From an uncultured Opitutales bacterium (GTDB taxonomy: Bacteria; Verrucomicrobiota; Verrucomicrobiia; Opitutales; Intestinicryptomonadaceae), in contig CAKUIA010000001.1 of the NCBI GenBank assembly GCA_934660865.1, forward strand, positions 173,226-205,225: a stretch of DNA of 32,000 bases. The letters are read 5' to 3'. A program made the translations under genes and the position numbers. The notes beneath the pieces are model-generated. The model was not told where the DNA came from, searched no databases, and was given only the letters and a program-made list of their open reading frames with translations. Of this stretch, positions 5,169 to 29,760 are shown piece after piece. How positions within the stretch are numbered: the first letter of the stretch is position 1; the number at the start of each line of letters is the position of its first letter.

Positions 5169-5173
5169 GGACT

Positions 5174-7543
5174 CTACACAAGCCTGTGTCGTTCTATAAC
5201 CTCGTTTTGCCAACGTTCCGACAAAGCGACAAAACGCGCAGAAAAACCGCATACTTTCACCATTAAATCCATGTGGCGTTCGGGGTGCTTTTGCGCGTCT
5301 ATAAGGTCTTCTACAGAATTGCAGTTAGGCTGCAAAAGGTGCCCGCATTTCTTTGCAAAAACCCTAAATATGGCGGCAAAAGTCTCGGCACTCATAGCGT
5401 GCTTGTCGAAAGTAAGATTGGCGTTCGATGCAATCAGACATTCGTGAGGAAGCGTTGCGATAGAGTTCAAAACCGTTGTAATACCCTCTTTGCAGCGGTA
5501 TTCGCTGGGCGAAAATCCCTGCGCAAAGCGGTCGCCGTTGTACCTGCCGTCGGGAGTCGCCTTTGCACCGTTTCCCCAATACATAAACTCTCTATATATC
5601 AAAATCGCCAAGTGGTACGAATCGTTTTGGTCGGTCGTAAAACCCTCTATGTCGTCGTGAATTTTCCGCATCCACCACACCATTTGCTCGCACGACTTTT
5701 TCGAACCGTCGCCCCAATACGGAGCCTTTAACACCTCTGCGCGCAAACGTTGTCCGTCGTCGCCCTCCCAGTTGTTTCGAACGGCATTCAGCAGCTCTTT
5801 TATAGTGCAAATTTTTTTGTCGAAACAAACGTATTCTATTGCCAACAGCGAATCCACAACATTGCCCAAAAACGCCAAAGTGATTACGCGCGGGCGAGAT
5901 GCTACACCGCCGTCGGTAGTATCGCGTCGGCTTTCTATTGCACCTTTTAGACACATAGAATATACGGGATAAGGCGAAACCTTCGCAATTTGCCTTCCGT
6001 ACCTAGTATATTGCCCCATCGCACTCCTGAAAAACTTTATAAAATTCCTGTATGCAATGCGCTGCGCATCGCCCGCGCTCTTTGCGTTTTGCAGGGGTTC
6101 AATTTCTATTTGCGCCTCTTTTTCTAAATTTTTATCCTGGTATATTGAAAGCTCCAAAGTTCTTACAACGGAAACATAGTTTGCGTCGTCTACGTCCATT
6201 ACCGAATCTATGTAGCCATTCCAACAACCGCACGCAACATATTCCCTTGCATCCTCGTCAGAAAAACCGCAATTTTTGTAATATGGAATATGGCGGTCGT
6301 CGTTAAACAGCGCAAACACACAATGCCCCTTCATAAGCATATCTCCGATTTGCAGGAAATATTCTTGCGGCGAATTAGACGATATCCTGCAATGCAATTT
6401 TGGGAATACACAATCTGCGGCATAGTGCATTTCTATAAACATTTTTGTTAGGTCGTTATACACTACGTTCCCGTATTTGTCGCACCCGCCCAATGTTATG
6501 GGAATTTCCATTTCGTGGTCGTCGTATCCGTCTACCTTGCGCATACCGTCGTGATGGCAATCGGCGGTAATCATAAATTTTGCAATCAATTCCTTTGCCT
6601 GGGCTACAGTTAAACGCCCTTCGGCTATGTCGGCCTTGTACAGGCCATACAGCCAAGCATCGCAACGCCCCATTGCATACACAGAAACCCCGTCTATATA
6701 GCCGAGTATTTCGCGCATAAACCAAAGAGTGTTTAGCCCTTCGTAAAATGTTTTCGGCGGTTCCCACGGGCAACGCTTTGCGGATTGCGCAATCATATTA
6801 AAGTTATTGCGCTGCCTTTCGGTTAAAGACGGGTCTTTTAAACGCCTTTCTGCTTCGTCTGCAAACGAAAGCTGTATCTTATGCAGCGTTTTCAATCCTT
6901 CAATAGCTGTCTGCAACTCCTTTTTGCCCAATATATCGTCGCTTGGACAGCTCTTTAACGCTGCTTGAACATCGGCATAAACGCCGCCAAAACCCTTGCT
7001 TAAAATTGTTCTCGCAGGTGGAATATGGTGAATTGAATCGACAAAAGGCCCGCAACAAAGCGTGAGGCGTTCTTTATTGCGCCTCTTGAACACCTTAAAG
7101 GCTTCGTCGGGAATCAAGTTTTTTTCACGGTAAAAACGCGAACAAAGATGCCAAGCCATTCTGGCTGGGCGCGCTCCCGCCCAGCCACCGTTTACGCCAG
7201 CTTCAAAATAAAACGGCGATTCGGTAAAAATAAACGGGACAAAGTGCGTACGCATAGACTCGTACAATTTTTTGCGTATATCCAATGCATCATAATTGGG
7301 GTTGAGTTTTGTATACGCGATTATTTCGCTCTGAATTTTCTTTACGCTGTCTATTTGTCTAATGTCTTTTGCTTTACCGTGGCATTCGTCAGGATAAAAA
7401 GCGCGAAGCTGCTTGCGTAAAGCCGCATAGTCTTCGGAGCAATTTAAACTTGAAGCCCCAAGCACGCCATTGCCGGCAAAAACCGTTGCAGTTGCTGCCA
7501 TAGCCGTATTTTTTAAAAAATTTCTCCTCGATATCATATACAT
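5174..7543 (-). CDS. Glycyl radical enzyme (PFL-like family), substrate unknown, with an N-terminal twin-arginine signal peptide
   Basis: 789 aa. C-terminal glycyl-radical motif DLMVKVCGFSARF (Gly766), TPDGR motif, and Cys loop YVACGCWNG (Cys440, 326 residues before the Gly, as in PFL). The N-terminus MISRRNFLKNTAMAATATVFAGNGVLGASS matches the Tat consensus S-R-R-x-F-L-K followed by an h-region. Confidence 0.9.
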   Translation of the reverse strand: MYMISRRNFLKNTAMAATATVFAGNGVLGASSLNCSEDYAALRKQLRAFYPDECHGKAKDIRQIDSVKKIQSEIIAYTKLNPNYDALDIRKKLYESMRTHFVPFIFTESPFYFEAGVNGGWAGARPARMAWHLCSRFYREKNLIPDEAFKVFKRRNKERLTLCCGPFVDSIHHIPPARTILSKGFGGVYADVQAALKSCPSDDILGKKELQTAIEGLKTLHKIQLSFADEAERRLKDPSLTERQRNNFNMIAQSAKRCPWEPPKTFYEGLNTLWFMREILGYIDGVSVYAMGRCDAWLYGLYKADIAEGRLTVAQAKELIAKFMITADCHHDGMRKVDGYDDHEMEIPITLGGCDKYGNVVYNDLTKMFIEMHYAADCVFPKLHCRISSNSPQEYFLQIGDMLMKGHCVFALFNDDRHIPYYKNCGFSDEDAREYVACGCWNGYIDSVMDVDDANYVSVVRTLELSIYQDKNLEKEAQIEIEPLQNAKSAGDAQRIAYRNFIKFFRSAMGQYTRYGRQIAKVSPYPVYSMCLKGAIESRRDTTDGGVASRPRVITLAFLGNVVDSLLAIEYVCFDKKICTIKELLNAVRNNWEGDDGQRLRAEVLKAPYWGDGSKKSCEQMVWWMRKIHDDIEGFTTDQNDSYHLAILIYREFMYWGNGAKATPDGRYNGDRFAQGFSPSEYRCKEGITTVLNSIATLPHECLIASNANLTFDKHAMSAETFAAIFRVFAKKCGHLLQPNCNSVEDLIDAQKHPERHMDLMVKVCGFSARFVALSERWQNEVIERHRLV

Positions 7544-15232: not shown

Positions 15233-17365
15233 TTAGTAGACAAAAAGCATTTCGCAATACTTGGGCAGCGGCCACAATTCGTTGTCGACTTCGCCTTCGA
15301 GCGTATCGGCAATTTTGCGGACTTGAGCCATTGCCTCGAGCAGCTTTACGGGAGCTTCGCCCTTCTTTATGAGGGCTTCAAGCTTGTCGGCCGCCAAAAC
15401 CAAAGCGTTAAGCCTTGTGTCGATTTTCGACGCCAGCGTTTTTACCGCCGAATTCTTTGTGCCCAAAACCTTTTCGGCTTCGAGCGACTTGCCCAGCTTT
15501 TCCAAATAGGAAACAACCGCGGGAATTATGTGCGTGCGCGAAATCTTCAAAGTCAACCCCGCTTCTATTCCGACTTTGCGGGTGTATTCCTCCAAAAATA
15601 CTTCGTAGCGCGACTTTAATTCCACCGAATTGAAGACTCCGTACTTTTCGAAAAGCGCAACGTTCTTGGGGTCTACCAAGGGCTTGATTGCCTCGGGGGT
15701 TGTGCGCAAATTGGGCAACTTGCGCTTTGCAGCCTCCTTCTTCCAGGCTTCGCCGTAACCGTCGCCGTTGAAGATAATCTTCTTGTGCTTTTTGATTATC
15801 GTCGAAAGAATCTTTTGCAATTCGTCGTGGAAGTTTGCGCCTTTTGGCAGATTTTCGAGCATTGTTGCGATTTCGTCGAAAGCTTCGGCAACGGCGGTAT
15901 TCAAAACAATGTTCGGGCTTGCGCAGCTTTGCGAAGAGCCTGCGGCTCTAAACTCGAACTTGTTGCCCGTAAAGGCAAATGGGCTTGTTCTGTTTCTGTC
16001 GGTTGCGTCGCAGGGCAATACGGGCAAAATGTCGGCTCCGATTTTCAAAATCTTGCCGTGCTTGCTCGACTTTGCTCCGCCGTTTTCGATTTGCTCTACA
16101 ATGTCGGCGAGCTGTTCGCCCAAGTACATCGAGATTATTGCCGGCGGCGCTTCGTTTGCGCCCAAACGGTGGTCGTTGCCAGCGCCCGCTATGGCCGAGC
16201 GCAACAAGTCGGCGTGCCTGTCGACAGCCTGTATTACCGCGCAAAGGCTTGTAAGGAATATCGCGTTTTGGTGTGGGTCGTCGCCGGGGTTAAGCAAATT
16301 GATGTCGCCAACCGAAATGGACCAGTTGTTGTGCTTGCCCGAGCCGTTTACGCCGTCGAAGGGCTTTTCGTGAAGCAGGCAGGCAAAGCCGTGCTTGTCG
16401 CCTATCCTCTTTAGCGCGTCCATAATAAGCATATTGTGGTCTACCGCCAAGTTAAGCTCTTCAAACATCGGGGCAATTTCGAACTGCGCGGGGGCAACTT
16501 CGTTGTGCCTCGTCTTTGCGGGTATGCCGAGCCTCCACAATTCGTGGTCCAACTCGCTCATAAACGACAAAATTCTGGGTTTAATTGCACCGAAGTAGTG
16601 GTCTTCCAGTTGTTGGTGCCTTTGCGGGGGAGCGCCGAAAAGCGTTCTGCCCGTTTGCATTAGGTCGGGGCGTTGTACATAAAAACGCTTGTCGATTAAA
16701 AAGTACTCCTGTTCGGCGCCCAAGGTTACCTTTGCGTTGCCCTCGAAAGTTTTGCCGAAGCACTTTAGCAGGCGCTTTGCCTGTGCGCCCAAAACCTGCA
16801 TCGAGCGCAGCAAGGGGGTTTTCTTGTCGAGAACCTCGCCCGTGTACGAGCAAAACGCCGTGGGAATATACAAGGTTGCAACACCGTATTCGCGCTTGAT
16901 AAAGGCGGGGCTTGTCGGGTCCCATGCGGTGTAGCCGCGGGCTTCGGCCGTAGAGCGCAAACCGCCCGAGGGGAAACTGGAGGCATCGGGTTCGCCCATT
17001 ATAAGGTTTTTGCCCGAAAATCTTGCAATAACTTCGCCGCCGCCGACCGGTTCAAGGAAGGAGTCGTGCTTTTCGGCGCTGGAACCCGTAAGGGGCATAA
17101 ACCAGTGCGTGTAGTGGGTAGCTCCCCTCTTTATCGCCCAGCTTTTCATTGCGTGGGCAACATCGTCGGCAATCGAAGAATCTATTGCCTTGCCCGTGTT
17201 CATTGTTTCCATCAACTTCTTGAAAACGGGCTTGGGGAGGTATTCCGACATCGCCTTGATGTTGAATACGTCGCAGCCGTAGTCTTCTATGAAGTTGCCT
17301 GCCGCCGCCGTTTCGGGAACGGCGGTGTCGGCAATATTTGCCAGTGCTATTTTTCTGCTATTCAT
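15233..17365 (-). CDS. Glutamine synthetase, type III
   Basis: 710 aa. The N-terminal region FNIKAMSEYLPKPVFKKLMETMNTGKAIDSSIADDVAHAMKSWAIKRGATHYTHWF and the ~700-aa length are characteristic of GSIII (Bacteroides/cyanobacterial GlnN type). Confidence 0.92.
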   Translation of the reverse strand: MNSRKIALANIADTAVPETAAAGNFIEDYGCDVFNIKAMSEYLPKPVFKKLMETMNTGKAIDSSIADDVAHAMKSWAIKRGATHYTHWFMPLTGSSAEKHDSFLEPVGGGEVIARFSGKNLIMGEPDASSFPSGGLRSTAEARGYTAWDPTSPAFIKREYGVATLYIPTAFCSYTGEVLDKKTPLLRSMQVLGAQAKRLLKCFGKTFEGNAKVTLGAEQEYFLIDKRFYVQRPDLMQTGRTLFGAPPQRHQQLEDHYFGAIKPRILSFMSELDHELWRLGIPAKTRHNEVAPAQFEIAPMFEELNLAVDHNMLIMDALKRIGDKHGFACLLHEKPFDGVNGSGKHNNWSISVGDINLLNPGDDPHQNAIFLTSLCAVIQAVDRHADLLRSAIAGAGNDHRLGANEAPPAIISMYLGEQLADIVEQIENGGAKSSKHGKILKIGADILPVLPCDATDRNRTSPFAFTGNKFEFRAAGSSQSCASPNIVLNTAVAEAFDEIATMLENLPKGANFHDELQKILSTIIKKHKKIIFNGDGYGEAWKKEAAKRKLPNLRTTPEAIKPLVDPKNVALFEKYGVFNSVELKSRYEVFLEEYTRKVGIEAGLTLKISRTHIIPAVVSYLEKLGKSLEAEKVLGTKNSAVKTLASKIDTRLNALVLAADKLEALIKKGEAPVKLLEAMAQVRKIADTLEGEVDNELWPLPKYCEMLFVY

Positions 17366-17399
17366 ATTTTTGTCCTTTCAAAATTTGTCTCTTTAAAAA

Positions 17400-18731
17400 C
17401 TATTCGTTCGAGAAGATTTGGAATCCGTTGTAGGCCTCCATTGCGTGTTCGGAAATATCCAAGCCCTTCAATTCGTCGCTCTTGCTTACCCTTATACCCA
17501 TTGTCTTTTTCATTGTGTAGAAGATTGCAAAGCTTATCGAAACGCTTGCCGCAGCCACTGCAACTATGCCTATTATTTGCGGTAAAAGCTCGTGGTCGGG
17601 CGAGAACAGGCCAACGGCCAAAGTTCCCCAAACACCGCATACCAAGTGTACCGAAAGCGCGCCAACGGGGTCGTCGATTTGCAGCTTGTCGAAAGCGTAT
17701 ACCGCAATTACAACTATCACACCCGAGATTGCGCCGATTAGGCACGAAGCTTGAATCGATACGCAGTCGGCAGAAGCCGTAATACCTACCAGGCCAGCCA
17801 AGCAGCCGTTAAGAACCATCGACAAGTCGGGCTTGCCTTGCGCTATCCACGAAGTGAACATTGCAGCCATTAAGCCCGCCGCGGCCGACAAAGCCGTTGT
17901 TGTAAATACGTAGGCCACCATTACGGGATCGGCGCTAAATACCGAAGCTCCGTTAAAGCCGAACCAACCGAACCACAGCAAAAATACGCCCAATGTTGCA
18001 AAGCCCAAGTTGCTGCCGGGAATTGCGTGAGCGGTCTTGCCCACATACTTGCCGATTCTCGGCCCTACCAAAATTGCGCCTACTAAGGCCGCCCAACCGC
18101 CTACGCTGTGCACGAATGTAGAACCCGCCAAGTCGTAGAAGCCGAGCTTTGCCAGCCAGCCGCCGCCCCAGCCCCACGAGCCAATAAGCGTGTAGCCGAA
18201 CGCCGCATAGATTATTGCAAAGATTATGTATGCGCTAAACTTTATCCTTTCGGCAACCGCACCCGAAACAATGGTTACGGAAGTTGCGGCAAACATGCCT
18301 TGAAAAATAAAGTCCGTCCAATAGCCGTAGTTGCCGCCGTTATAGGCAATGGCTCCCAACGCGCCCTCGGGCGAGGAAACGCCCAAGCCGATAAAGCCCA
18401 GCACGCCGTTTATAAGCCAGGAATCTTTCGGATACATAATGCTAAAACCGATTACCACATAGGTAAGCAAACCTATTGCCACCGTGATAACGTTTTTAGA
18501 CAGAATGTTTACGCTGTTCTTTGCGCGGCATAAACCCGTTTCTACCAGTGCAAACCCGGGGTGCATTGCAAAAACCAAAATTGCGCCCAAAAGTATCCAC
18601 AAGTTGTTAATTGTAAACATTTCGTTCGACACAGCGGGCGCTGCAGCCTCGGCGTTTGCCGCCACCTCTTGCCCGAATGCGGAACACGCACCCATCAGTG
18701 CGCCTATATATAACAATGTCTTTAGTCTCAT
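17400..18731 (-). CDS. amt: Ammonium transporter (Amt family)
   Basis: 443 aa with a signal peptide and 11 TM helices. Conserved motifs include FVHSVGGWAALVGA and the second pore His in SVHLVCGVWGTL. Confidence 0.95.
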   Translation of the reverse strand: MRLKTLLYIGALMGACSAFGQEVAANAEAAAPAVSNEMFTINNLWILLGAILVFAMHPGFALVETGLCRAKNSVNILSKNVITVAIGLLTYVVIGFSIMYPKDSWLINGVLGFIGLGVSSPEGALGAIAYNGGNYGYWTDFIFQGMFAATSVTIVSGAVAERIKFSAYIIFAIIYAAFGYTLIGSWGWGGGWLAKLGFYDLAGSTFVHSVGGWAALVGAILVGPRIGKYVGKTAHAIPGSNLGFATLGVFLLWFGWFGFNGASVFSADPVMVAYVFTTTALSAAAGLMAAMFTSWIAQGKPDLSMVLNGCLAGLVGITASADCVSIQASCLIGAISGVIVVIAVYAFDKLQIDDPVGALSVHLVCGVWGTLAVGLFSPDHELLPQIIGIVAVAAASVSISFAIFYTMKKTMGIRVSKSDELKGLDISEHAMEAYNGFQIFSNE

Positions 18732-18752
18732 AACCGTAAATTGTTTGAATTT

Positions 18753-19094
18753 TTAACCTATTGCCTCGCGCCCCGTTTCGCGCGTTCTTACGCGAATACA
18801 CTCCTCGACGTTCAATACAAAAATTTTGCCGTCGCCGATATGGTCGGTTTGGGCGCCTTTTATAATAGACTCTATGGTCTGGTCGAGATACTCGTCGTTA
18901 ACGGCGATTTCCAAGCGTACTTTTTTAAGGAGGTTTACCTCTCTAACATTTCCGCGATAGTTTTCGCTATAACCCTTCTGCCTTCCGCAGCCGAGTGCGT
19001 TGGTAACCGATAGCCTGTATATTTCGTTCTTGAAGAGTTCCTTTTTTACCTCTCCAAGTTGTTCGGGCTTAATGTATGCTATTATTAGTTTCAT
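18753..19094 (-). CDS. glnK: P-II nitrogen regulatory protein (GlnK-type, linked to amt)
   Basis: 113 aa from the internal ATG at 19094 (MKLIIAYIKPEQL...GCGRQKG...IGDGKIFV...RVRT). The 49-codon upstream extension of the tracked ORF would run through the sigma-54 promoter. Confidence 0.9.
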   Translation of the reverse strand: MKLIIAYIKPEQLGEVKKELFKNEIYRLSVTNALGCGRQKGYSENYRGNVREVNLLKKVRLEIAVNDEYLDQTIESIIKGAQTDHIGDGKIFVLNVEECIRVRTRETGREAIG

Positions 19095-19125
19095 TTTTTT
19101 GGAATGATGAGATACTTTCTTGATA

Positions 19126-19141
19126 AGCATAAAGCGTGCCA
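19126..19141 (-). promoter_or_regulatory. Sigma-54 (-24/-12) promoter of glnK-amt-GSIII
   Basis: The minus strand reads TGGCAC-GCTTT-ATGCT. The GG/GC spacing is exactly that of the TGGCAC-N5-TTGC consensus, and it lies 32-47 nt upstream of the glnK ATG. Confidence 0.8.
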
Positions 19142-19275
19142 GTTTTTTTGCGCATTTTTGCAAAAAGACGGCAAAACCCGAAAACCCCGCATAAATACTA
19201 AGACCTACAAGAATGTATGCACCTGCAAAATTGGCGCGCACAAAAAAGTAGTCGGCATAAGGCCTATTTTTGGCC

Positions 19276-19331
19276 TTTGTATGCTACAAATTTGTTGCAA
19301 CTACATTTTTGTGCTACTACAAATTTGTAGT
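19276..19331. promoter_or_regulatory. Upstream activator sequence: three tandem 16-bp palindromic sites
   Basis: GCTACAAATTTGTTGC (19283-19298), ACTACATTTTTGTGCT (19300-19315) and ACTACAAATTTGTAGT (19316-19331, a perfect palindrome), preceded by a TTTGTA half-site at 19276. The site centres lie 150-183 bp upstream of the -24 element. Confidence 0.7.
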
Positions 19332-19348
19332 TCGGTAAAATATACAAC

Positions 19349-19377
19349 AAAAAAGGCGGTGCATTTAAGCACCGCCC
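19349..19377 (-). terminator. Rho-independent terminator after the dapF-like gene
   Basis: The minus strand reads GGCGGTGC-TTAAAT-GCACCGCC followed by TTTTTTG, 25 nt after the stop at 19401. Confidence 0.85.
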
Positions 19378-19400: not shown

Positions 19401-20261
19401 TTACATATTGGGAATGTCTTGCGTTAAAACGCTATCGAACATTTCGTATACCCCCACTTTTGTAGCGGGCCCGCTCATTGTTATAGAATAGTCGGGTTTT
19501 ATAGAAATTTTCAAAATTCCCCCCGGCATATGGACAGTTATGTCGCCCTCGCATAAGCCAAGTTTGTAGGCAACGCTTGCCGCCGCGCTAGAGCTTGAAC
19601 CCGAAGCCAAGGTATAGCCTGCGCCCCTCTCCCAAATTTGTATGTTAATGTTGTTTTTGTCTACAACCTCCAAAAACTGCACATTTGTTCTGTTGGGGAA
19701 TTTTTTCGTCATATTCTCCAAAACGGGGCCAATTTTGTGCGCAATTTCCGACGAAACCTTTTTCATGGGCACAACGCAATGCGGGTTGCCCACCGTTGCA
19801 CAGCAGTATTTATAGGCAACGCCGTCTATTACAACCTCCTGGTTTATAACTTCACCCTTTACTCCGTTTACGGGAATCTTGTCGGCGTCGAAGCTTACGC
19901 GCCCCATTTCAACGGTAATGTAGTCGCCGTTTTGCGAAACCGTGCACGAAACTACGCCGCCTAAGGTGTCTACCGTAAAGGGTTTGTTTTCCTCTACGCG
20001 CCCCGTGTCGAACAAATAGCGCGAAAATATCCTAAGGCCGTTGCCGCTTTTTTCGGCCTCGCTGGCGTCGGGGTTTAAAATGCGCAATTTAAAGTCGGCC
20101 TTGTCGCTCTTTTCGGGGCCGAACAAAATTCCGTCGCTTCCCAAGCCGAAATTTCTGTGGCAGATTTTAACAACGTCCAAGCCCTGCGGGCAAACGGGGC
20201 AGTCTTTGGGGTCTAAAACCAGATAGTCGTTGCCCAATGCGTGGTATTTATAAAACTTCAT
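19401..20261 (-). CDS. dapF: Diaminopimelate-epimerase-family protein (DapF fold) with both catalytic Cys positions occupied by Ser
   Basis: 286 aa from the ATG at 20261 (MKFYKYHALGNDYLVLD), 13 nt after the dapL stop. DapF motifs GNDY, GSDG, NPDASEAEKSGNG, GNPH and ERGAGYTLASGSS are present. The two active-site Cys of canonical DapF (..CGNG.., ..ACG[ST]G..) are Ser here. Confidence 0.8.
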   Translation of the reverse strand: MKFYKYHALGNDYLVLDPKDCPVCPQGLDVVKICHRNFGLGSDGILFGPEKSDKADFKLRILNPDASEAEKSGNGLRIFSRYLFDTGRVEENKPFTVDTLGGVVSCTVSQNGDYITVEMGRVSFDADKIPVNGVKGEVINQEVVIDGVAYKYCCATVGNPHCVVPMKKVSSEIAHKIGPVLENMTKKFPNRTNVQFLEVVDKNNINIQIWERGAGYTLASGSSSSAAASVAYKLGLCEGDITVHMPGGILKISIKPDYSITMSGPATKVGVYEMFDSVLTQDIPNM

Positions 20262-20274
20262 TTTTGTATCCTTG

Positions 20275-21513
20275 TTAAAATTCGAATTTCGACTGCGACA
20301 TTCTCTTTTTGATTTCGGCAACAACGGCCTTTTCGGCCTCTGCGCCGTGCGCTTCGAAGGTTACCGAAAACCTTACATACGGGCCTTCGTCGTCCCACGG
20401 GACAGTGCTTATAAGGTGCTGCGAAATCATCCACTGCGAAAAATCCTCGCCCGATTTAAACTTTGTTTTGCTCCCGTCTTTGTCTACCGCGGCTTTTGGG
20501 GCTTTCATATAAAGGAAAAATCCCGCCTTGGGCTTTTTGGGGCAAAAGCCCAAATCTTTTAGCACGCCCACAAGCAAATCCATACGCCTTGAATATTTGG
20601 CGGCAATTTGCCTTGTAATAAGCGGGTTTTCAAGCCCCTTGGCTCCCGCAAGCTGTATGCCCAAAAACTGCCCTGAATCGCAGTTGTCCTTAACGTCGCC
20701 GTAGGCTTTTACAAGCAGGGGGTTGCCGCAAACCCAGCCTATTCTCCAGCCCGTCATATTGTGGCTTTTCGACATCGAATGCAGCTCAAGAGCCACGTCT
20801 TTGGCGCCTTGAACCTGAAATATCGAAAGCGAAGGCCCTTCGAACGTTAAAGACGCGTACGCGGCGTCGGAAATTATTATTATGGAATTTTCCTTTGCAA
20901 ACTTTACAAGCTTTTCGAAAAATTCAAGAGTTGCGCTTGCGCCCGTGGGGTTGTTCGGATAGTTTACAACCATAACCTTTGCCCTTTTCCTTATGTCTTG
21001 GGGAATGGAATCCAAGTCGGGCAAAAAGTTGTTTTCTTCGGAAAGCTTTACGTTGTATACTTCGCCGCCCAGATATTTTGCGTGCGTGCCGAAAACGGGG
21101 TAGCCGGGAATTGTCATTATAACAACGTCTTTTGGGTTTATAAAGCAATAGGGCAAAATGCTCAGGGCCGCCTTGGAACCTATCGAGTGTATGATTTCGG
21201 TGTCGGGATCTAGCTGTACGCCGAAAACCGCCTTCATATAGGAAGCGGCTGCAACCTTAAAATCCCTGCCGCCGTTGTCGGCATAGCCGCGGTTTGCGGG
21301 GTTTTTCGCCGCCGCATACAAAGCCTCTACAACTTCGGGGAAAGCCATTTCGTCGGGCTCGCCTACGCCCATGTCTATAAGTTCAACATCGGGCTTGGCG
21401 GCTTTGGCCGCGCGCTTTGCCCTCTTGATTTTTTCGAACTTGTAAATTTCGTTCGTTTTGCCGTAGTTTACTCCGCCTATTCTTTCGGCGAACATATTTT
21501 GAAGGAATGTCAT
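20275..21513 (-). CDS. dapL: Class I/II PLP aminotransferase, probable LL-diaminopimelate aminotransferase
   Basis: 412 aa with IDMGVGEPD, NYPNNPTG and the PLP-lysine motif SMSKSHNMTGWRIGW. The function is inferred from family resemblance and adjacency to the DapF-family gene. Confidence 0.65.
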   Translation of the reverse strand: MTFLQNMFAERIGGVNYGKTNEIYKFEKIKRAKRAAKAAKPDVELIDMGVGEPDEMAFPEVVEALYAAAKNPANRGYADNGGRDFKVAAASYMKAVFGVQLDPDTEIIHSIGSKAALSILPYCFINPKDVVIMTIPGYPVFGTHAKYLGGEVYNVKLSEENNFLPDLDSIPQDIRKRAKVMVVNYPNNPTGASATLEFFEKLVKFAKENSIIIISDAAYASLTFEGPSLSIFQVQGAKDVALELHSMSKSHNMTGWRIGWVCGNPLLVKAYGDVKDNCDSGQFLGIQLAGAKGLENPLITRQIAAKYSRRMDLLVGVLKDLGFCPKKPKAGFFLYMKAPKAAVDKDGSKTKFKSGEDFSQWMISQHLISTVPWDDEGPYVRFSVTFEAHGAEAEKAVVAEIKKRMSQSKFEF

Positions 21514-21539: not shown

Positions 21540-23111
21540 TTATTTATATAAAAGCGGGTCTATATTCAGTTTTTTTATTTTATAGAGTATAATGCGCGGC
21601 GTGGTCTTTAAATATTTTGCGGCCGCGCTTGCGTTGCCGTTGTTTTTCTTTAGCGCGTTTATTATTATTTCGCGCTCGAAGTTGCCGACAAGCGTTTCGT
21701 AGTCGGTATTTTCGGGCTCTGCGCCGTCGCCCGCAAAGGCGGGGGCCGACGCCGTCGACAAATCGGTCTGCAAAGTCGGCGGCAAATTGTAGCCGCTAAT
21801 TACGTTGTCGGAAGTGTTTAAAACCGCATATTCCATGCAGTTTTCAAGCTCCCTTACGTTGCCCGGCCAATAGTATGAAGTCAGCATATTTATGGCCGTT
21901 GTGGAAATTCTCGAAACGCTTTTGTTGTGTATTAAATTGTATTTTTCCAAAAAGTGCTCGGCTAAAGACGTAATGTCGCACTTGCGGTTTCGCAGTGCGG
22001 GCAGATATATCGGGAATACGTTTAGGCGGTAGTACAAGTCTTCCCTAAAAGTTCCCTCCTTAATCATTTCCTCCAAATTGCGGCTTGTTGCGGCCAATAT
22101 GCGCACGTCTACCCTGCGCTCCTGGCTCGAGCCTACCCTAAAAAATGTGTGCTCTTGAATGAAGCGCAAAAGTTTTAACTGCATAAACAAGGTTAAGTCG
22201 CCGACTTCGTCCAAAAACAAAGTTCCCGTGTCTGCAACTTCAACCAAGCCCGCCTTGCGGTTTACAGCCCCCGTAAACGAGCCCTTTTCGTGGCCGAACA
22301 ATTCGCTTTCTATAAGGCCTTCGGGCAATGCCGCGCAGTTTATGGAAACAAACGGTTTGTCTTTTCTAAGCGAATTTTTCTGGATTGCGCGCGCAACAAG
22401 CTCTTTGCCCGTGCCCGATTCGCCCCTTATTAAAACCGTAGCGTTCGAAGAGGCCACTTTGAAAATCATCGAATACACCTTTTTCATATTCGCGCAATTC
22501 CCCACAATTTCGGTGGGGCGCAGCTTGTTTTCAAGCTCAAGGTGCAAACGCTTGTTTTCGCTTATCAGCTTTTCTCGCTCTTCAACTTCGGCGTAGGCTG
22601 CGTAAACGGCGTCGGCCATAATGTTGGCTATAATTTCAAGCAGGCGCAAATCGGCGTCTAAATCGGTGTTTTCGTCGGTTTTGCGGTCTATGCTTATGGT
22701 GCCAATTACGTCGTCCATATATATAATGGGAACGCAAATAAAGGCCACGTTTGTTTCGCCCGAGCGCGCGCCCGTGCGGTTTAAAAAGCCTTTTTCCTTC
22801 GAAACATCGGCAATTACGCGCGGCTTGCCCTCTAGCGCAACCATGCCCGTAATGCCCTCGCCTATGCGGTAGGTGCCGCGCTCGGCCTCGCGCTTGCTAA
22901 GCCCCTGCGAGGCCTCTATTACAAGCATATCGCCCTCGCGCAGAGCCACAGTGCCCCTAAGCAGACCCATTTCGGTATGCAATGTATCCAGAATCTGCGA
23001 AATCATCTCCTGCACCGACGATCTCTTTGCCACAAGGTGGCTTATTTTCTTTAATACTTCAATGCTAACGTGTAGGTGGTTGTCCATAAGCTGGTGTTTG
23101 TTTTGCGGCAC
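21540..23111 (-). CDS. Sigma-54-dependent transcriptional activator, GAF - AAA+ - Fis-type HTH (NifA-like architecture)
   Basis: N-terminal GAF-like domain (no receiver domain). AAA+ core with Walker A GESGTGKE, the sigma-54 contact loop ESELFGHEKGSFTGA, Walker B LFLDEVG, and WPGNVRELEN. C-terminal HTH NASAAAKYLKTTPRIILYKIKKLNI. The tracked start is GTG at 23111; an alternative ATG is at 23087. Confidence 0.92.
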   Translation of the reverse strand: MPQNKHQLMDNHLHVSIEVLKKISHLVAKRSSVQEMISQILDTLHTEMGLLRGTVALREGDMLVIEASQGLSKREAERGTYRIGEGITGMVALEGKPRVIADVSKEKGFLNRTGARSGETNVAFICVPIIYMDDVIGTISIDRKTDENTDLDADLRLLEIIANIMADAVYAAYAEVEEREKLISENKRLHLELENKLRPTEIVGNCANMKKVYSMIFKVASSNATVLIRGESGTGKELVARAIQKNSLRKDKPFVSINCAALPEGLIESELFGHEKGSFTGAVNRKAGLVEVADTGTLFLDEVGDLTLFMQLKLLRFIQEHTFFRVGSSQERRVDVRILAATSRNLEEMIKEGTFREDLYYRLNVFPIYLPALRNRKCDITSLAEHFLEKYNLIHNKSVSRISTTAINMLTSYYWPGNVRELENCMEYAVLNTSDNVISGYNLPPTLQTDLSTASAPAFAGDGAEPENTDYETLVGNFEREIIINALKKNNGNASAAAKYLKTTPRIILYKIKKLNIDPLLYK

Positions 23112-23186: not shown

Positions 23187-26100
23187 TTAAGAATTTGCGC
23201 GCTTTGCCAAGGCAGCCCTGTAGTCGATTGGGAACACTTTTACAAACTTCGGCAAAAATTCGCTCCAGTTGTTTAAAATGTTTTCGGCAACATAGCTGTT
23301 TGTTGCGTTGTAATAGTCTTGAATAATGCCCCTTAGTTCGGCGTCCGACTCGGAATTTTCGGCAATGCTTTCCAAGTCTACGCTTTCAAGGTTGCACCTT
23401 CTGTCGAACTGACCGTCGGCGTCGAGCACATAGGCAAAGCCGCCCGTCATGCCGGCCGCAAAGTTAAAGCCTGTCGGGCCCAAAACTACAACGCGCCCGC
23501 CCGTCATATATTCGCAGCAGTGGTCGCCCGCGCCCTCGGTTACAATAACGGCCCCGCTGTTTCTGATTGCAAGCCTTTCGCCCGCAAGGCCGTTTATGTA
23601 AATCTTGCCGTTCGTAGCGCCGTAGCCGATTACGTTGCCGGCAATAACGTTCTTCGAGGCGTTTTCCCTTTCGGCGTCGTACGCCTTTATGAAGATATTG
23701 CCGCCCGAAAGGCTCTTGCCTATATAGTCGTTGGCTTCGCCGGTAAGGGTAAAGTTTATGCCGTGGCACAGGAACGCGCCAAAGCTTTGCCCGGCGCAGC
23801 CCGTAAAGTTTGCGTTTACGGCGTTTTCGGGCAAATTGCCGTCGCCCCACTTTTTGGCCGCTACGCCCGCAAGCATTGCGCCAACGCTTCTGTCGAAGTT
23901 GTGTATTTCAAAGCTTTCGGTGTGCGAAGAGCCGTTTTCCAAACTTTCGGCAAAGGCCCCAAGCAGTTTTTTGTCGTAGGCGTCCTTCAATTCCCTTTCG
24001 GCAAGGCCGGCCGACTTTCTCGGAGAGTTTTCGTCGGCAATTTGCGCAAACATCTTCGAAAAGTCCAAATTCTTCGACTTCCAAAAATCCAGCGCGCCGT
24101 CTTTGTCGAGCAAGTCGCTGCGGCCTACGGCCTCGTCTATGGACCTTAGCCCCAACGACGCCAAAATTTCCCTGGTTTCTTCGGCTACAAAGCGCAGGTA
24201 GTTTTCGATATGTTCGGGCTTGCCCGCAAACTTTTTGCGCAACTGCTCGTCTTGCGTTGCAACGCCGACGGGGCAGCAGTTCTTGTGGCATACGCGCCTC
24301 ATTACGCAGCCTATTGCAACCAAAATGGAGGTTGCAAAACCGAATTCCTCGGCGCCAAGCAACGCGCCTATTACAACGTCGCGGCCCGTCTTTATCTGGC
24401 CGTCTACCTGAACGCGAATCTTGTCGCGCAGGCCGTTTAGGCGCAGCGTTTGCTGGGTTTCGGCCAAACCTATTTCCCAGGGAGCACCCGCATATTTAAT
24501 GCTGGTTAAAGGAGACGCCCCCGTGCCGCCGTCGTGGCCGCTAATAAGAACCATGTCGGCCTTGGCCTTTGCAACGCCCGCCGCAACCGTGCCTACGCCG
24601 GCTTCGGAAACAAGCTTTACGGAAACCCTTGCGCTTTCGTTTGAATTGCGCAGGTCGTATATAAGCTGGGCAAGGTCTTCTATTGAATAAATGTCGTGGT
24701 GCGGCGGCGGCGATATCAAAGTTACCCCCGGAATGGAGTGCCTGATTTTTGCTATTATCGAGTTTACCTTGTAGCCGGGCAGCTGGCCACCCTCGCCGGG
24801 CTTTGCGCCCTGGGCAACCTTTATCTGCAGTTCCTTTGCGTTTGCCAAATAGGCGGCCGTTACGCCGAATCTGCCGCTTGCAATCTGCTTTATTGCGCTG
24901 GAGCTTTCGGTGTTAAAGCGGCTTTCGTCTTCGCCGCCCTCGCCGCAGTTGCTCATTGCGCCAAGCCTGTTCATTGCAACGGCTATGGTTTGGTGCGCCT
25001 CGGGCGAAAGCGCGCCGAAACTCATTGCGCCGCTTACAAAGCGCTTTACAATGCTTTCGGTGCTTTCAACTTCGCTTAAAGGCAATGGGGTTGCCGCCGT
25101 CTTAAACTTGAACAAGCCCCTTAAAGTGCAAAGCCTGCGCGCCTGGTTGTTTACAAAATCGGCATACTGGCGGTAAAGCTTTTCGTCGTTATTCCTTACC
25201 GACCTTTGCAAAAGCGATATGCTTGCGGGAGTCCACAAATGGTTTTCGCCGTCTTTTGCATACTTGTATTTGCCCGCGTTTTCCAAAACGTTTTCCTCGC
25301 CGAACTTCGGGTAGTGCGTGTTGCGGTACCTTTCCAAAATTTCGGTTGCAACCTCGTTTATGCCTATGCCGCCTATTCTGGACGACGTGCCCGAAAAATA
25401 GGTGTCTACAAATTCCTGCGAAAGGCCTATTGCCTCGAAAATCTGCGCCTGGCGGTAGCTTCGCAAAGTGGAAATGCCCATTTTCGACATTATCTTTAAA
25501 AGCCCCTTCTTTATGGCGGTTATGTAGTTTTCGGCGGCTCTTGCGGCGTCGATATTGTCTATCTGGCCGTCCTTTACCATTTCGGCAACGGTTTCTATAG
25601 CCAAATAGGGGTTTATTGCCGTAGCTCCATACCCAAGCAAAAGCGCAAAGTGCATAATTTCGCGCGATTCGCCCGTTTCGGCCACAATGCCCGCGGCATA
25701 GCGCAAGCTGCACTTTACAAGCCTTGTGTTTACGGCGGCCACAGCCAAAAGCATCGGTATAGGCGCATAGCCGTAGTCAAGGTTCTTGTCGCTTAAAATT
25801 ATAACCGTTTTAGAATCCCTTACCGCGTTTTCGGCGTCGTCGCAAATTTTTTCCATTGCGCGCTTTAGGGCTTCTACGCCGCCTTCGGCCGAAAACTGCG
25901 CCTTAATTGTTACCGACTGGAACGTAGGCAACTTGGAAGAGCGCATGCAGGAAATGTCGTGGTTGGTTAAAATCGGGCACGGCAGCTTTAGCAGGTGCGC
26001 CAACGAAGGCGACTCTACAAGCGAGTTTCCGCAGTTGCCTATGTAGGTTGTCAAGCTCATTACAAGCGACTCCCTTATCGGGTCTATCGGCGGGTTTGTT

Positions 26101-27653
26101 ACCTGGGCAAACAGCTGCTTAAAGTAGTCGTACAAAAGCTGCGGCTTTTCGGAAAGCACGGGCAAAGCCGCGTCGTTGCCCATCGAGCCTATGGGCTCTT
26201 TTGCGTCTACGGCCATGGGCTTTAAAATCAAATCCAAATCCTCTTTTGTATAGCCGAAAAGTTTTTGCCTTTGAATAAGGTTTTCGCCTATGGACGGAGC
26301 TTCGGAATTTTCGAATATGCCGGGCAGCTCTATTCTGTTTTCCTGAACCCAGCGGCGGTAGGGCTTGGCTCGGGCAAGCACCGTTTTAATTTCGGTGTCG
26401 TGCATTACCCTACCCTTTTCGGCGTCTATATAAACCATTTCGCCGGGGCGCAAACGTCCCTTTAAGGCTATGTCGTTTTCGGGCAAATCCAAAACGCCCG
26501 TTTCGCTTGCCAAAACAAACAAGCCGCTTTTCGTTATCGTATAGCGGGCGGGTCTTAAACCGTTGCGGTCTAGCAAAGCGCCCGACTGCGTGCCGTTGGT
26601 AAATACCAAGGCCGCGGGGCCGTCCCACGGTTCGCTTACGCCCGAATGGTATTCAAAAAAGCCCTGAATGTCTTTGCTGATATGGAAAGACTTGCCCCAC
26701 GCCTGGGGAACAAGCATAAGCATTGTATGCGGTAGCTTGCGCCCAGCCTGGCAATAAAATTCGACGGCGTTGTCCAAACAGGCCGAGTCGCTCTGGTTGG
26801 GGCTAATTACGGGCAAAAGCTTCTTTATATTGTCGCCGAAAAGCGGGGTTGAAAAATGCTCTTGGCGCATATTCATTTGGTTGATATTGCCGCGCAAGGT
26901 GTTTATTTCGCCGTTGTGGGCCAAATATCTGAAAGGCTGCGCCAAAGGCCATGTCGGGAAAGTGTTTGTAGAATACCTTTGATGTATAAGCGAAATTGCG
27001 CTTACATAAGTTTCGTCGCTTAAGTCGGGGTAAAACTGCTTTAGCTGGGGAGCGTTTAAAAGCCCCTTGTATACAACCGTTTTTGCCGAAAGCGAGCAAA
27101 TGTAAAAAGATTCAATATTTTCGGCCGCAATTTTGTTTTCTATTACCCTGCGCAATATATACAGGCTGCGCTCCATTTCCTCTGCGCTTAAGCCGCTTTT
27201 TGCTATGAACAACTGCTCTATGTTCGGGCAACTGTTAAGGGCTATGCCGCTTATTGCAGACTTGTCGACGGGAACCGTTCTTTCGGCTACGAACGAAAAC
27301 CCTTCGCTTGCCAGACAGCCCTTGAAAATTTCCACACACTTTTTTACCGAAGATTCGTCTTGGGGCAAAAACAGCATTGCAACTGCATATTCGCCAAGCT
27401 TGGGCAGCTTTTCGCCCAATACCTTTCTAAAAAACGCGTCGGGGATTTGGGTTAGAATGCCAGCGCCGTCGCCCGTGTGCGAATCTCCGCCAACTGCGCC
27501 CCTGTGTAGGAGTCTTTCCAAAACTTTAATGCCGTCCAAAACAATTTGGTGGCTTGCGCGGCCCTTAATGTCGCTGATAAGGCCAACACCGCAAGCGTCG
27601 TGTTCGTTTTTGGGACTATACATTCCCTGTTCTTTTGGATAATACATCTGCAT
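23187..27653 (-). CDS. gltB: Glutamate synthase large (alpha) subunit
   Basis: 1488 aa. It has a class-II amidotransferase N-terminus with a propeptide then Cys (NEHDACGVGLISD), a central domain, an FMN/3Fe-4S domain (RRVCHKNCCPVGVATQD) and a C-terminal GXGXG beta-helix domain. No small-subunit (gltD) gene is adjacent. Confidence 0.95.
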   Translation of the reverse strand: MQMYYPKEQGMYSPKNEHDACGVGLISDIKGRASHQIVLDGIKVLERLLHRGAVGGDSHTGDGAGILTQIPDAFFRKVLGEKLPKLGEYAVAMLFLPQDESSVKKCVEIFKGCLASEGFSFVAERTVPVDKSAISGIALNSCPNIEQLFIAKSGLSAEEMERSLYILRRVIENKIAAENIESFYICSLSAKTVVYKGLLNAPQLKQFYPDLSDETYVSAISLIHQRYSTNTFPTWPLAQPFRYLAHNGEINTLRGNINQMNMRQEHFSTPLFGDNIKKLLPVISPNQSDSACLDNAVEFYCQAGRKLPHTMLMLVPQAWGKSFHISKDIQGFFEYHSGVSEPWDGPAALVFTNGTQSGALLDRNGLRPARYTITKSGLFVLASETGVLDLPENDIALKGRLRPGEMVYIDAEKGRVMHDTEIKTVLARAKPYRRWVQENRIELPGIFENSEAPSIGENLIQRQKLFGYTKEDLDLILKPMAVDAKEPIGSMGNDAALPVLSEKPQLLYDYFKQLFAQVTNPPIDPIRESLVMSLTTYIGNCGNSLVESPSLAHLLKLPCPILTNHDISCMRSSKLPTFQSVTIKAQFSAEGGVEALKRAMEKICDDAENAVRDSKTVIILSDKNLDYGYAPIPMLLAVAAVNTRLVKCSLRYAAGIVAETGESREIMHFALLLGYGATAINPYLAIETVAEMVKDGQIDNIDAARAAENYITAIKKGLLKIMSKMGISTLRSYRQAQIFEAIGLSQEFVDTYFSGTSSRIGGIGINEVATEILERYRNTHYPKFGEENVLENAGKYKYAKDGENHLWTPASISLLQRSVRNNDEKLYRQYADFVNNQARRLCTLRGLFKFKTAATPLPLSEVESTESIVKRFVSGAMSFGALSPEAHQTIAVAMNRLGAMSNCGEGGEDESRFNTESSSAIKQIASGRFGVTAAYLANAKELQIKVAQGAKPGEGGQLPGYKVNSIIAKIRHSIPGVTLISPPPHHDIYSIEDLAQLIYDLRNSNESARVSVKLVSEAGVGTVAAGVAKAKADMVLISGHDGGTGASPLTSIKYAGAPWEIGLAETQQTLRLNGLRDKIRVQVDGQIKTGRDVVIGALLGAEEFGFATSILVAIGCVMRRVCHKNCCPVGVATQDEQLRKKFAGKPEHIENYLRFVAEETREILASLGLRSIDEAVGRSDLLDKDGALDFWKSKNLDFSKMFAQIADENSPRKSAGLAERELKDAYDKKLLGAFAESLENGSSHTESFEIHNFDRSVGAMLAGVAAKKWGDGNLPENAVNANFTGCAGQSFGAFLCHGINFTLTGEANDYIGKSLSGGNIFIKAYDAERENASKNVIAGNVIGYGATNGKIYINGLAGERLAIRNSGAVIVTEGAGDHCCEYMTGGRVVVLGPTGFNFAAGMTGGFAYVLDADGQFDRRCNLESVDLESIAENSESDAELRGIIQDYYNATNSYVAENILNNWSEFLPKFVKVFPIDYRAALAKRANS

Positions 27654-27681: not shown

Positions 27682-27697
27682 AGCAAATTGCGTGCCA
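27682..27697 (-). promoter_or_regulatory. Sigma-54 (-24/-12) promoter of gltB, activator, dapL, dapF
   Basis: The minus strand reads TGGCAC-GCAAT-TTGCT, 29-44 nt upstream of the gltB ATG (27653). Confidence 0.85.
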
Positions 27698-27771: not shown

Positions 27772-27885
27772 AACTTTTTTGTAGGCATTCCCGACAAATT
27801 TGCAGACTACAAATTTGTCGCAAACAAATTTGTTGAAACTACATTTTTGTTGCAAGAAAATTCTTATTTTTGCTACAAAAAAGTT
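27772..27885. promoter_or_regulatory. Upstream activator sequence: four tandem 16-bp palindromic sites framed by a 13-bp inverted repeat
   Basis: CCGACAAATTTGCAGA (27791-27806), ACTACAAATTTGTCGC (27806-27821), CAAACAAATTTGTTGA (27821-27836) and ACTACATTTTTGTTGC (27838-27853). They are flanked by AACTTTTTTGTAG (27772-27784) and its exact reverse complement CTACAAAAAAGTT (27873-27885). Confidence 0.7.
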
Positions 27886-29605: not shown

Positions 29606-29621
29606 AGCAAAAGGCGTGCCA
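29606..29621 (-). promoter_or_regulatory. Sigma-54 (-24/-12) promoter of nadE
   Basis: The minus strand reads TGGCAC-GCCTT-TTGCT. The -12 GC is only about 17 nt upstream of the ATG at 29590. Confidence 0.75.
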
Positions 29622-29729: not shown

Positions 29730-29760
29730 AAAAAAAGCAAACTACAAAATTGTAGTTTGC
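29730..29760 (-). terminator. Terminator of the glycosyltransferase gene whose stem is a copy of the UAS palindrome
   Basis: GCAAACTACAA-AA-TTGTAGTTTGC (29737-29760; 11-bp arms) is followed on the minus strand by T7 (29730-29736). The core ACTACAAAATTGTAGT differs at 1 of 16 positions from the glnK site ACTACAAATTTGTAGT. Its centre is 128 bp upstream of the nadE -24 element. Confidence 0.7.

Follow-up and report, generated by a model that had tools for sequence, protein, structure and literature searches.

The DNA analysed here is a stretch of 32,000 nucleotides (nt) from an uncultured Opitutales bacterium (contig CAKUIA010000001.1, positions 173,226 to 205,225), hereafter called the window. 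On its minus strand, at 19401–20261, it carries a gene of the dapF family whose product of 286 amino acids (aa) has serine in place of both catalytic cysteines of diaminopimelate (DAP) epimerase. We conclude, with a probability of about 70%, that this gene codes for the organism's working LL-DAP to meso-DAP epimerase and that it belongs to a large subfamily of DapF proteins sharing the serine pair (Ser/Ser). The conclusion is drawn from comparative sequence analysis. DapF is the textbook two-cysteine, cofactor-independent racemase, and replacement of Cys by Ser is treated by the field as an off switch for such enzymes.

A full-length DapF with serine at both catalytic positions

The gene starts with an ATG codon at 20261, which is preceded at a distance of 8 nt by an AAGGA ribosome-binding site, and ends with a stop codon at 19401–19403. 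The start agrees with the N-termini of the homologues (MKFxKYHALGNDY), and the open reading frame (ORF) coordinates 19401–20261 originally assigned are thus correct. A longer ORF starting with TTG at 20324 was rejected because it overlaps the upstream gene.

The window protein reaches 229 bits with TIGR00652, the NCBIfam equivalog for DapF (cut-off 114.65), over residues 1–270 of 286, and contains two tandem PF01678 domains according to Pfam. All solved DapFs were matched from end to end by phmmer, with E-values from 2e-53 (Arabidopsis, 3ejx) to 1e-20; Bacillus 2otn was matched at E = 2.8e-42. Full-length identity to canonical DapFs is 33–35%. The AlphaFold2 model of the protein (predicted local distance difference test score 96, predicted template-modelling score 0.92) has Anabaena DapF 9mro as its top Foldseek match (template-modelling score, TM-score, 0.90; E = 3e-33). 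The 26 best matches are all DapF-family chains, consisting of DapF structures and the O-ureidoserine racemase 7vdy. The resemblance to DapF along the whole length, which the sequence-only reading had noticed by eye, is thus confirmed by TIGR00652, PF01678, the solved DapFs and the predicted fold. By every sequence and fold test applied, the predicted protein is a full-length DapF.

With NF038284, which describes the Chlamydia-type bifunctional DapF/glutamate racemase, the score was 63.8 bits and remained below the cut-off of 350. Neither Pfam nor NCBIfam matched the window protein to the proline racemase superfamily, to which it has only a remote likeness in fold (TM-score 0.70–0.75 at 12–16% identity). 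For the PhzF family there was no Pfam match, and Foldseek gave only TM-scores of 0.61–0.71 at 13–17% identity.

HMMER alignments to four solved DapFs (Arabidopsis, Anabaena, Pseudomonas and Escherichia coli) confirm the assignment of serine to both catalytic positions. Ser72 (codon AGC, 20046–20048) falls into the column of catalytic Cys73, and Ser220 (codon TCG, 19602–19604) into that of catalytic Cys217. In the first motif, 'aeKSgngl' is placed over 'peMCgngv' (Arabidopsis, Anabaena) and 'vaQCgnga' (E. coli Cys73); in the second, 'ytlaSgss' is placed over 'atlaCgtg' and 'etqaCgsg' (E. coli Cys217). We take the E. coli residue numbering to be equal to that of Haemophilus. The comparison with Haemophilus rests on the E. 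coli alignment and on a published correspondence, in which the loop segment Val-Ser-Gln corresponds to Pro-Glu-Met, directly before the catalytic Cys in Anabaena and Arabidopsis (PMC12039745).

In the AlphaFold2 model, Ser72 directly precedes helix 73–85 and Ser220 directly precedes helix 221–233. The N-termini of both central helices are the positions of the canonical cysteines; the Cys pair itself is absent. The codon TCG is two changes away from TGY, that is, from any Cys codon, as had been pointed out, while AGC is one change away. It also holds that neither catalytic loop of the window protein contains another Cys. Since both catalytic cysteines are serine, the two-thiol mechanism cannot operate in this protein.

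Two ways of restoring a different catalytic group were considered and rejected. As to a new catalytic Cys elsewhere in the protein, Cys34 (99%) and Cys162 (87%) are conserved; both are equally kept in DapFs with two catalytic cysteines (Cys/Cys; 8 of 11 each) and are therefore not compensatory. For modification of Ser to formylglycine, as in sulfatases, the sequence S-G-N-G-L-R is, by eye, unlike the motif (C/S)-x-(P/A)-x-R, which we take to be the sulfatase-type signature.

Distribution of the Ser/Ser state

The serine pair was present in all 120 of the nearest protein clusters (90% clustering; 61–99% identity to the query), whose named members are from Opitutales, Puniceicoccaceae and Cerasicoccus. 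It was also present in 120 of 120 clusters from a profile search and in 94 of 94 from a further homologue search; names in these two further cluster searches were Planctomycetes, Phycisphaerales, Phycisphaerae and Verrucomicrobia. Among the best 150 representatives at the 50% identity level, 124 were Ser/Ser, reaching down to 38% identity, seven were Cys/Cys and a handful were mixed.

For a genome scan, one genome per species was searched with the clade's own N-terminal motif as query. This gave at least 600 stretches, of which the best 80 loci were analysed, and all 80 encode Ser/Ser. They are mostly from Verrucomicrobiota. Among these are Cerasicoccus maritimus, which has been cultured, as well as IMCC26134 and a Coraliomargarita, both with complete genomes. 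Other labels among them are Sedimentisphaerales, Pirellulales, BRC1, Desulfobacterales and one Calothrix parasitica. The complete genomes with Ser/Ser include CP149973.1, CP011265.1 and OZ244160.1. A protein 80% identical to the query, also Ser/Ser, is encoded by Opitutia bacterium KCR 482, a cultured bacterium from the human gut with a complete genome of 2.30 Mb. A third homologue search, in which the DapFs of Verrucomicrobium spinosum, Akkermansia and cultured planctomycetes were sought, had only Phycisphaerae metagenome-assembled genomes among the matches listed.

In total, 334 protein clusters and 80 genome loci have the Ser/Ser pair, most of them from Verrucomicrobiota and Planctomycetota. 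A survey of how widespread the variant is had been proposed; it reveals conservation across a large clade. Judged by these sequences, the Ser/Ser DapF is a large and old subfamily which is typical of Verrucomicrobiota and Planctomycetota.

Two occurrences in other phyla deserve mention. A second Ser/Ser DapF, apparently independent, was found in Candidatus Solincola of the Actinomycetota (P0252, P0552, P0553). Its background is of the canonical type (Phe13, Cys78, Glu195 and Gly223; motif GAGETLASAAGA), and the protein groups with Cys/Cys enzymes in the tree. On the evidence of this canonical background, the double replacement of Cys by Ser may have arisen more than once. In Calothrix parasitica NIES-267 (AP018227.1; L056, 5977–6846), a locus of 35% GC encodes a Ser/Ser DapF that shares 58% identity with the query. 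Its gene starts 6 nt after a putative LD-carboxypeptidase gene (motif read by eye). This DapF may be an extra, horizontally acquired copy because cyanobacteria normally carry a Cys/Cys DapF.

Conservation of the serines and of the substrate pocket

In the Ser/Ser comparison set, serine is found in 100% of the proteins at position 72 and at position 220. The codons differ. Over the 80 genomes, position 72 is encoded by AGY in 64 cases and by TCN in 16, and position 220 by TCN in 69 cases and by AGY in 11. Serine has been kept despite switches between two unconnected codon families, which argues for long purifying selection for serine itself.

We take the residues defining the pocket of the Haemophilus influenzae enzyme to be Asn11, Asn64, Gly74-Asn75, Asn157, His159, Asn190, Glu208, Arg209 and Gly218-Ser219. 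All of these are present in the query, as N11, N63, G73-N74, N159, H161, N193, E211, R212 and G221-S222. Part of this set is described in PMC5885031. Within the clade, the DAP-binding and helper residues N11, N63, G73, N74, N159, H161, N193, E211, R212 and G221 are 96–99% conserved; position 222, which is S222 in the query, is Ser or Thr.

A neighbour-joining tree has no long branch between the Ser/Ser and the Cys/Cys enzymes, the separating branch having a length of 0.013–0.029. No acceleration of the rate in the Ser/Ser clade relative to Cys/Cys DapFs was seen in this tree. The features expected of a pseudo-enzyme, namely relaxed catalytic sites, a relaxed pocket and acceleration, were not found.

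Residues covarying with the serines and natural hybrids

To define signatures, 103 full-length Ser/Ser representatives and the query were compared with 11 Cys/Cys sequences, including four for which a structure has been solved. Residue 13 (in GNDY; codon 20223–20225, minus strand as for all codons and motifs of this gene) is Tyr in 97% of the Ser/Ser proteins, whereas it is Phe in nine of the 11 Cys/Cys sequences. The equivalent Phe is among the residues that line the active site of DapF (PMC5885031). The first serine lies in the clade motif KSGNGLRI (Lys71-Ser72-Gly-Asn-Gly-Leu-Arg-Ile78; 20028–20051). Position 71, which belongs to a loop curving round the substrate (PMC12039745), is Lys or Arg in 84% of the clade and Met or Gln in Cys/Cys enzymes; position 78 is Ile in 96%, compared with Cys in 8 of the 11.

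The second serine is part of the clade motif YTLASGSS (Tyr216-Thr-Leu-Ala-Ser220-Gly-Ser-Ser223; 19593–19616). Here, position 223 is Ser in 95% of the clade and Gly in all 11 Cys/Cys sequences, while position 216 is Tyr in 80% and variable in Cys/Cys enzymes. Residue 195 (codon 19677–19679), located two residues past the substrate-binding Asn193, is Gln in 94% of the Ser/Ser proteins and Glu, Gly or His in the others. Tyr13, Lys/Arg71 and Ile78 covary with Ser72, and Gln195, Tyr216 and Ser223 covary with Ser220. As the sequence comparison shows, extra polar groups (Tyr13, Lys71, Gln195 and Ser223) have been added to a canonical pocket and geometry, and their covariation suggests roles for them near the serines. 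Lys71 and Tyr216 were rejected as universal activators: they are found in no more than 84% and 80% of the clade, too few for a strict requirement.

A peculiarity of the window protein itself is Ala66 (codon 20064–20066). The sequence around it is NPDASE, compared with N-x-D-G-S-E in 98% of the clade and in every Cys/Cys enzyme. Ala66 occurs otherwise only in the closest relatives, P0135 and P0230.

Natural hybrids combine one half of each signature. P0143 (Ser/Cys) has Y13/K71/S72/I78 together with H195/C220/G223. It is a real gene, located on a 1.6-Mb contig among housekeeping neighbours; a family-B DNA polymerase gene flanks it on one side and tsaD on the other, and purB is also a neighbour. 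P0269 (Cys/Ser) has the opposite combination, C72 with Q195/S220/S223, and P0192 is Thr/Cys with Phe13. The mixed states of P0143 and P0269 imply that each half-site can work in either mode and that the two switch independently. Independent switching of half-sites, each with its own residue set, would be expected if serine, assisted by its surroundings, takes over the function of cysteine. Further half-converted DapFs are P0197 (Ser/Cys) and P0153 (Ser/Thr); the loci L085/L086 (6001–6843) also belong to this set. From their sequences, the half-converted proteins look like evolutionary intermediates or reversions, and they would be ideal enzymes for comparison.

Gene fusions and pathway context

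Meso-DAP is consumed by two enzymes, LysA and MurE, and fusions of Ser/Ser DapFs to both have been found. Two LysA-DapF fusions (P0127, P0146) score 360 and 410 bits with TIGR01048 (cut-off 297.9), and a DapF-MurE fusion (P0145), present on two independent contigs from different metagenomes, scores 451 bits with TIGR01085 (cut-off 257.3). Fusions to alanine racemase (Alr-DapF) exist in both orders (P0160, P0207). Three fusions were looked up (P0127, P0145 and P0146), and each is a continuous ORF on its contig. We regard the fusions as the strongest functional evidence for a role of the Ser/Ser clade in the DAP pathway. Three more proteins are candidate Ser/Ser fusions, or products of gene-calling read-through, with a gamma-glutamyl cyclotransferase-like domain (P0130), a GNAT acetyltransferase (P0162) and an S-adenosylmethionine-dependent methyltransferase (P0163).

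Published work on relatives bears on the same pathway. For Lacunisphaera limnophila (Opitutaceae), which has a complete genome and contains DAP, one DapF, whether Ser/Ser or not, is listed together with DapL (PMC5303756). For V. spinosum, one dapF gene is listed, again whether Ser/Ser or not; the organism has neither a ddh gene nor the corresponding activity, DapL being the only route (PMC3390587). Its dapF is essential according to transposon sequencing (PMC12283558, supplementary file 8).

Cerasicoccus species and other Verrucomicrobia of subdivision 4 were first described as being without DAP or peptidoglycan. Later, about 10-fold less DAP than in E. coli was reported, together with ornithine (PMC5303756). 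Several carriers of a Ser/Ser DapF (L011, P0105, P0110) belong among these low-DAP organisms.

Proposed mechanism and alternative explanations

The sequence-only reading had left three possibilities for the gene: an enzyme with different chemistry, a pseudo-enzyme or binding protein, and a lineage-specific epimerase with a mechanism not yet described. The third fits best, except that the protein is not narrowly lineage-specific but represents the form of DapF that is standard across a very large clade. As an epimerase, it would act between DapL and the two consuming steps, LysA for lysine and MurE for peptidoglycan. The two-base 1,1-proton transfer would be kept. The reacting carboxylate of DAP would be held at the N-termini of helices 73–85 and 221–233. 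One of the serines, as an alkoxide or as a proton relay, would take the alpha-proton, and the hydroxyl of the opposite serine would reprotonate the planar intermediate on the other face. The serines may be activated by the helix dipole, by the hydroxyl of Tyr13 or by Lys71, and possibly by the conserved His161/Glu211 pair. The single H. influenzae mutants C73S and C217S are said to retain some epimerase activity.

We also think it probable, although with less assurance than for the role of the gene itself, that the whole clade deprotonates an unactivated alpha-carbon in this way, using a Ser/Ser pair tuned by the co-evolved Tyr13, Lys71, Gln195 and Ser223. The clade would then contain the first racemase with the DapF fold to employ two oxygen bases, resistant to thiol inhibitors and to oxidation, and Verrucomicrobiota as well as many Planctomycetota would depend on it as their housekeeping source of meso-DAP and lysine.

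Several points weigh against a Ser/Ser epimerase. The hydroxyl of serine is a far poorer acid/base than a thiol at neutral pH. Among 17 matches in the PDB, Ser at a catalytic site was found only in engineered mutants, and no member of the Ser/Ser clade was present. Single Cys-to-Ser mutants of enzymes with the DapF fold 'hinder catalysis' and are used by crystallographers to capture the open form (PMC12039745, PMC11602996). A 2021 review of cofactor-independent racemases names as the only exception a Thr/Cys enzyme, which has another fold (PMC8142540). Finally, DAP in subdivision-4 Verrucomicrobia, including Lacunisphaera, is about 10-fold below that in E. coli (PMC5303756). If the demand for DAP is correspondingly low, these organisms may manage with a slow enzyme or use a different route.

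One alternative is a pseudo-enzyme, a protein that binds LL- or meso-DAP in sensing, sequestration or regulation of a partner, with epimerisation left to an unrelated enzyme. Cys-to-Ser mutants of the fold are seen as catalytically crippled (PMC12039745, PMC11602996), other bacteria possess the non-homologous DapF2, which depends on pyridoxal phosphate (PMC9026213; bioRxiv 10.1101/2024.10.14.618325), E. coli without dapF still grows by means of a low-efficiency racemase (bioRxiv 10.1101/2024.10.14.618325), and E. coli DapF moonlights as a regulator of its partner RppH (PDB 6d13). A dead site would drift, however, whereas both serines are invariant and maintained from both codon families. His161, Glu211 and all of the pocket show the same degree of conservation as in active enzymes, and no branch is accelerated. 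A catalytic source of meso-DAP would also be in keeping with the independent fusions to LysA, MurE and Alr, and the pathway tables of Lacunisphaera and V. spinosum list one DapF each, whether Ser/Ser or not, and no Ddh (PMC5303756, PMC3390587). We therefore regard a pseudo-enzyme as quite unlikely. Unlikely, too, is a DapF fold with a changed reaction or substrate, such as a dehydratase-like enzyme or an epimerase of a DAP-peptide or of a diamino acid such as ornithine. The proline racemase superfamily sets a precedent for altered chemistry and includes structural neighbours found by Foldseek (4k7g, 6r76), but DAP is without a beta leaving group for elimination. Other substrates are used by the DapF-family enzymes HisR (PMC11602996) and O-ureidoserine racemase (7vdy) and reportedly by PddB (PMC8225329). 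Ornithine occurs beside DAP in the walls of Opitutaceae (PMC5303756), and the Calothrix gene follows its putative LD-carboxypeptidase gene (a motif read by eye) at 6 nt. Against this stand the residues for the reacting and the distal end of free DAP, all of which are kept. The score is also twice the cut-off of the DapF equivalog, compared with 63.8 bits under the Chlamydia-type bifunctional model, whose cut-off is 350. The Ser/Ser clade does not form a long, divergent branch, and its genomic and fusion partners DapL, DapA, LysA and MurE are those of the DAP pathway.

An artefact of sequencing, assembly or gene calling, or a recent inactivating mutation, has next to nothing in its favour apart from the a priori oddity of the protein and the single substitution that separates the AGC codon of Ser72 from TGC. 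The ORF is intact and full-length, with a ribosome-binding site and a terminator, and TCG is two steps from Cys. Identical residues in over 400 sequences obtained independently by many projects, complete genomes among them, bear out the earlier judgement that a sequencing slip is unlikely and refute an artefact or pseudogene.

Operon structure and probable nitrogen regulation

On the minus strand of the window, the gene order is nadE, gltB, the gene for a sigma-54 activator, dapL, dapF, a terminator, glnK, amtB and glnN, which encodes type III glutamine synthetase (GSIII). The dapL gene (20275–21513, minus strand) codes for an LL-DAP aminotransferase of 412 aa and passes the NF004937 equivalog with 645.1 bits (cut-off 585). 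Between dapL and dapF there is a spacer of 13 nt (20262–20274), which contains the AAGGA ribosome-binding site as read from the sequence. The gene upstream of dapL (21540–23111, minus strand) encodes a sigma-54-dependent activator with GAF, AAA+ and Fis-type helix-turn-helix domains (PF13185, PF00158, PF25601, PF02954); the gap to dapL is 26 nt and contains no terminator. The first gene of the unit is gltB (23187–27653, minus strand) for the large subunit of glutamate synthase, with four glutamate synthase Pfam domains.

A predicted sigma-54 promoter, TGGCACGCAATTTGCT (27682–27697, minus strand), is located 29 nt upstream of gltB, and another upstream of nadE (29606–29621, minus strand). Both are perfect matches, so that the window contains two compared with 0.06 expected by chance. 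A further predicted sigma-54 site, upstream of glnK (19126–19141, minus strand), has one mismatch. The gltB promoter is preceded, at a distance of about 110 nt, by the palindrome CTACAAATTTGTCG (27807–27820), a likely binding site of the activator and one of four such sites. The palindrome CTACAAWWTTGTAG occurs at 19284–19297, 19317–19330, 27807–27820 and 29742–29755, that is, four times versus 0.01 expected, and each copy is 110–190 nt upstream of a sigma-54 promoter. The palindromes probably bind the GAF-AAA+ activator (21540–23111), which would result in a compact nitrogen regulon. Just past dapF there is an intrinsic terminator (19354–19377, minus strand; GGGCGGTGC..GCACCGCCT followed by a T-run) with a 9-bp stem containing seven GC pairs. 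In the Rfam gathering search for RNA elements, including a lysine riboswitch, only three tRNAs were found.

The 13-nt and 26-nt gaps, the promoter and the terminator support co-transcription of dapF with dapL behind gltB and the activator gene, as first proposed. The dapL-dapF pair plausibly belongs to the nitrogen regulon of this organism, judging from the predicted promoter and binding sites. The unit gltB-activator-dapL-dapF would tie DAP and lysine synthesis to the nitrogen status, the DapL step being one that consumes glutamate. The suggestion that the two-gene module might not be simple lysine/peptidoglycan biosynthesis is not supported, as the aminotransferase passes the DapL cut-off and the link to dapL is local. 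Nor does the Ser/Ser protein always travel with this aminotransferase: among the 80 genomes, dapL adjoins dapF only in L002, apart from the window. This genome, from a sheep-rumen Opitutales bacterium, has the order GSIII-dapL-dapF (L002, 3–2156), so that DAP genes are again linked there to genes of nitrogen assimilation, in rearranged form. In gut relatives with 80% identity, dapF stands alone between a biotin operon and rpmG.

No alternative operon is conserved either, as no partner dominates among the close same-strand neighbours in the 80 genomes. Among 68 such neighbours scanned, dapA adjoins dapF on the same strand twice, and LeuA was found three times. A dapA-like cluster lies within three genes of dapF in three loci. 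The nitrogen-regulon context is a local arrangement and not a property of the Ser/Ser subfamily.

Two other parts of the window may be noted, both on the minus strand. The genes after dapF (15233–19241) are glnK for a P-II protein, amtB and the gene for type III glutamine synthetase. At 4386–7543, a glycyl-radical enzyme (PFL-like and Gly_radical domains, 789 aa) is followed by a radical-SAM activase (288 aa), which is consistent with an anaerobic lifestyle in gut or rumen.

Comparison with known systems

No description of a natural Ser/Ser DapF, and no biochemically characterised protein of the clade, was found in the searchable full-text literature; the GapMind 2026 paper concerns other enzymes. 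Databases label the Ser/Ser proteins plainly as 'diaminopimelate epimerase', and annotation rules or signatures requiring Cys would mislabel the clade. A large natural Ser/Ser subfamily, fixed under selection and tied to the DAP pathway, would mean that either hydroxyl bases suffice in the right environment or major phyla use an undescribed route to meso-DAP. It also adds a molecular lead to the debate over the unusual cell walls of the Planctomycetes-Verrucomicrobia-Chlamydiae (PVC) superphylum. If the Ser/Ser proteins are epimerases, thiol-alkylating DapF inhibitors such as aziridino-DAP (aziDAP) would probably miss the clade, and there might be a tie to the low DAP content behind the 'peptidoglycan-less' descriptions of these groups.

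Canonical DapF (EC 5.1.1.7; TIGR00652; 2gke, 4ijz, 3ejx, 9mro) has the same two-domain pseudo-symmetric fold as the window protein (TM-score 0.82–0.90). The DAP-binding residues (N63/64, N159/157, H161/159, N193/190, E211/208, R212/209), the helix positions and the pathway neighbours are also the same. It differs in the Cys pair and in Phe13, Met/Gln71, the Cys in 'GNGxRC', Glu/Gly195 and Gly223, where the window protein has the Ser pair and Tyr, Lys, Ile, Gln and Ser, respectively. Corynebacterium glutamicum DapF is subject to a redox switch by an active-site disulfide (PMC5296763). Such a disulfide is impossible in the Ser/Ser protein which, if active as proposed, would be intrinsically oxidation-proof.

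The bifunctional DapF/glutamate racemase of Chlamydia trachomatis, also from the PVC superphylum, works downstream of DapL as well (PMC5885031). It keeps C72 and C207 in a remodelled pocket, while the window protein combines Ser/Ser with a canonical pocket. The theme of replacing Cys by Ser or Thr is shared with the proline-racemase-like trans-3-hydroxy-L-proline dehydratases, whose fold is related (TM-score about 0.7 at 13–16% identity). The substrate of those enzymes has a beta-hydroxyl leaving group, whereas the window protein keeps the pocket of DapF.

Serine at a catalytic position of the same fold is otherwise known from engineered proteins, C73S and C217S of H. influenzae DapF (2q9h, 2q9j) and C67S/C209S of HisR, which turned up among the matches by structure and by sequence. 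These carry single substitutions in an unadapted background and are catalytically hindered (PMC12039745, PMC11602996), in contrast to the natural proteins with both serines, co-varying changes in the second shell and long purifying selection. The co-varying residues, together with the natural Ser/Cys and Cys/Ser hybrids, offer a ready mutational path for comparing the two types. Among natural cofactor-independent racemases, E. coli EcL-DER (Thr/Cys) has one catalytic Cys replaced by a hydroxyl residue (PMC8142540). Its fold is that of the Asp/Glu racemase superfamily, just one of the two bases is replaced, and it is reportedly effectively unidirectional, whereas in the Ser/Ser DapF both bases would be hydroxyl groups. 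Its nearest parallels in the DapF family are P0143 (Ser/Cys) and P0192 (Thr/Cys).

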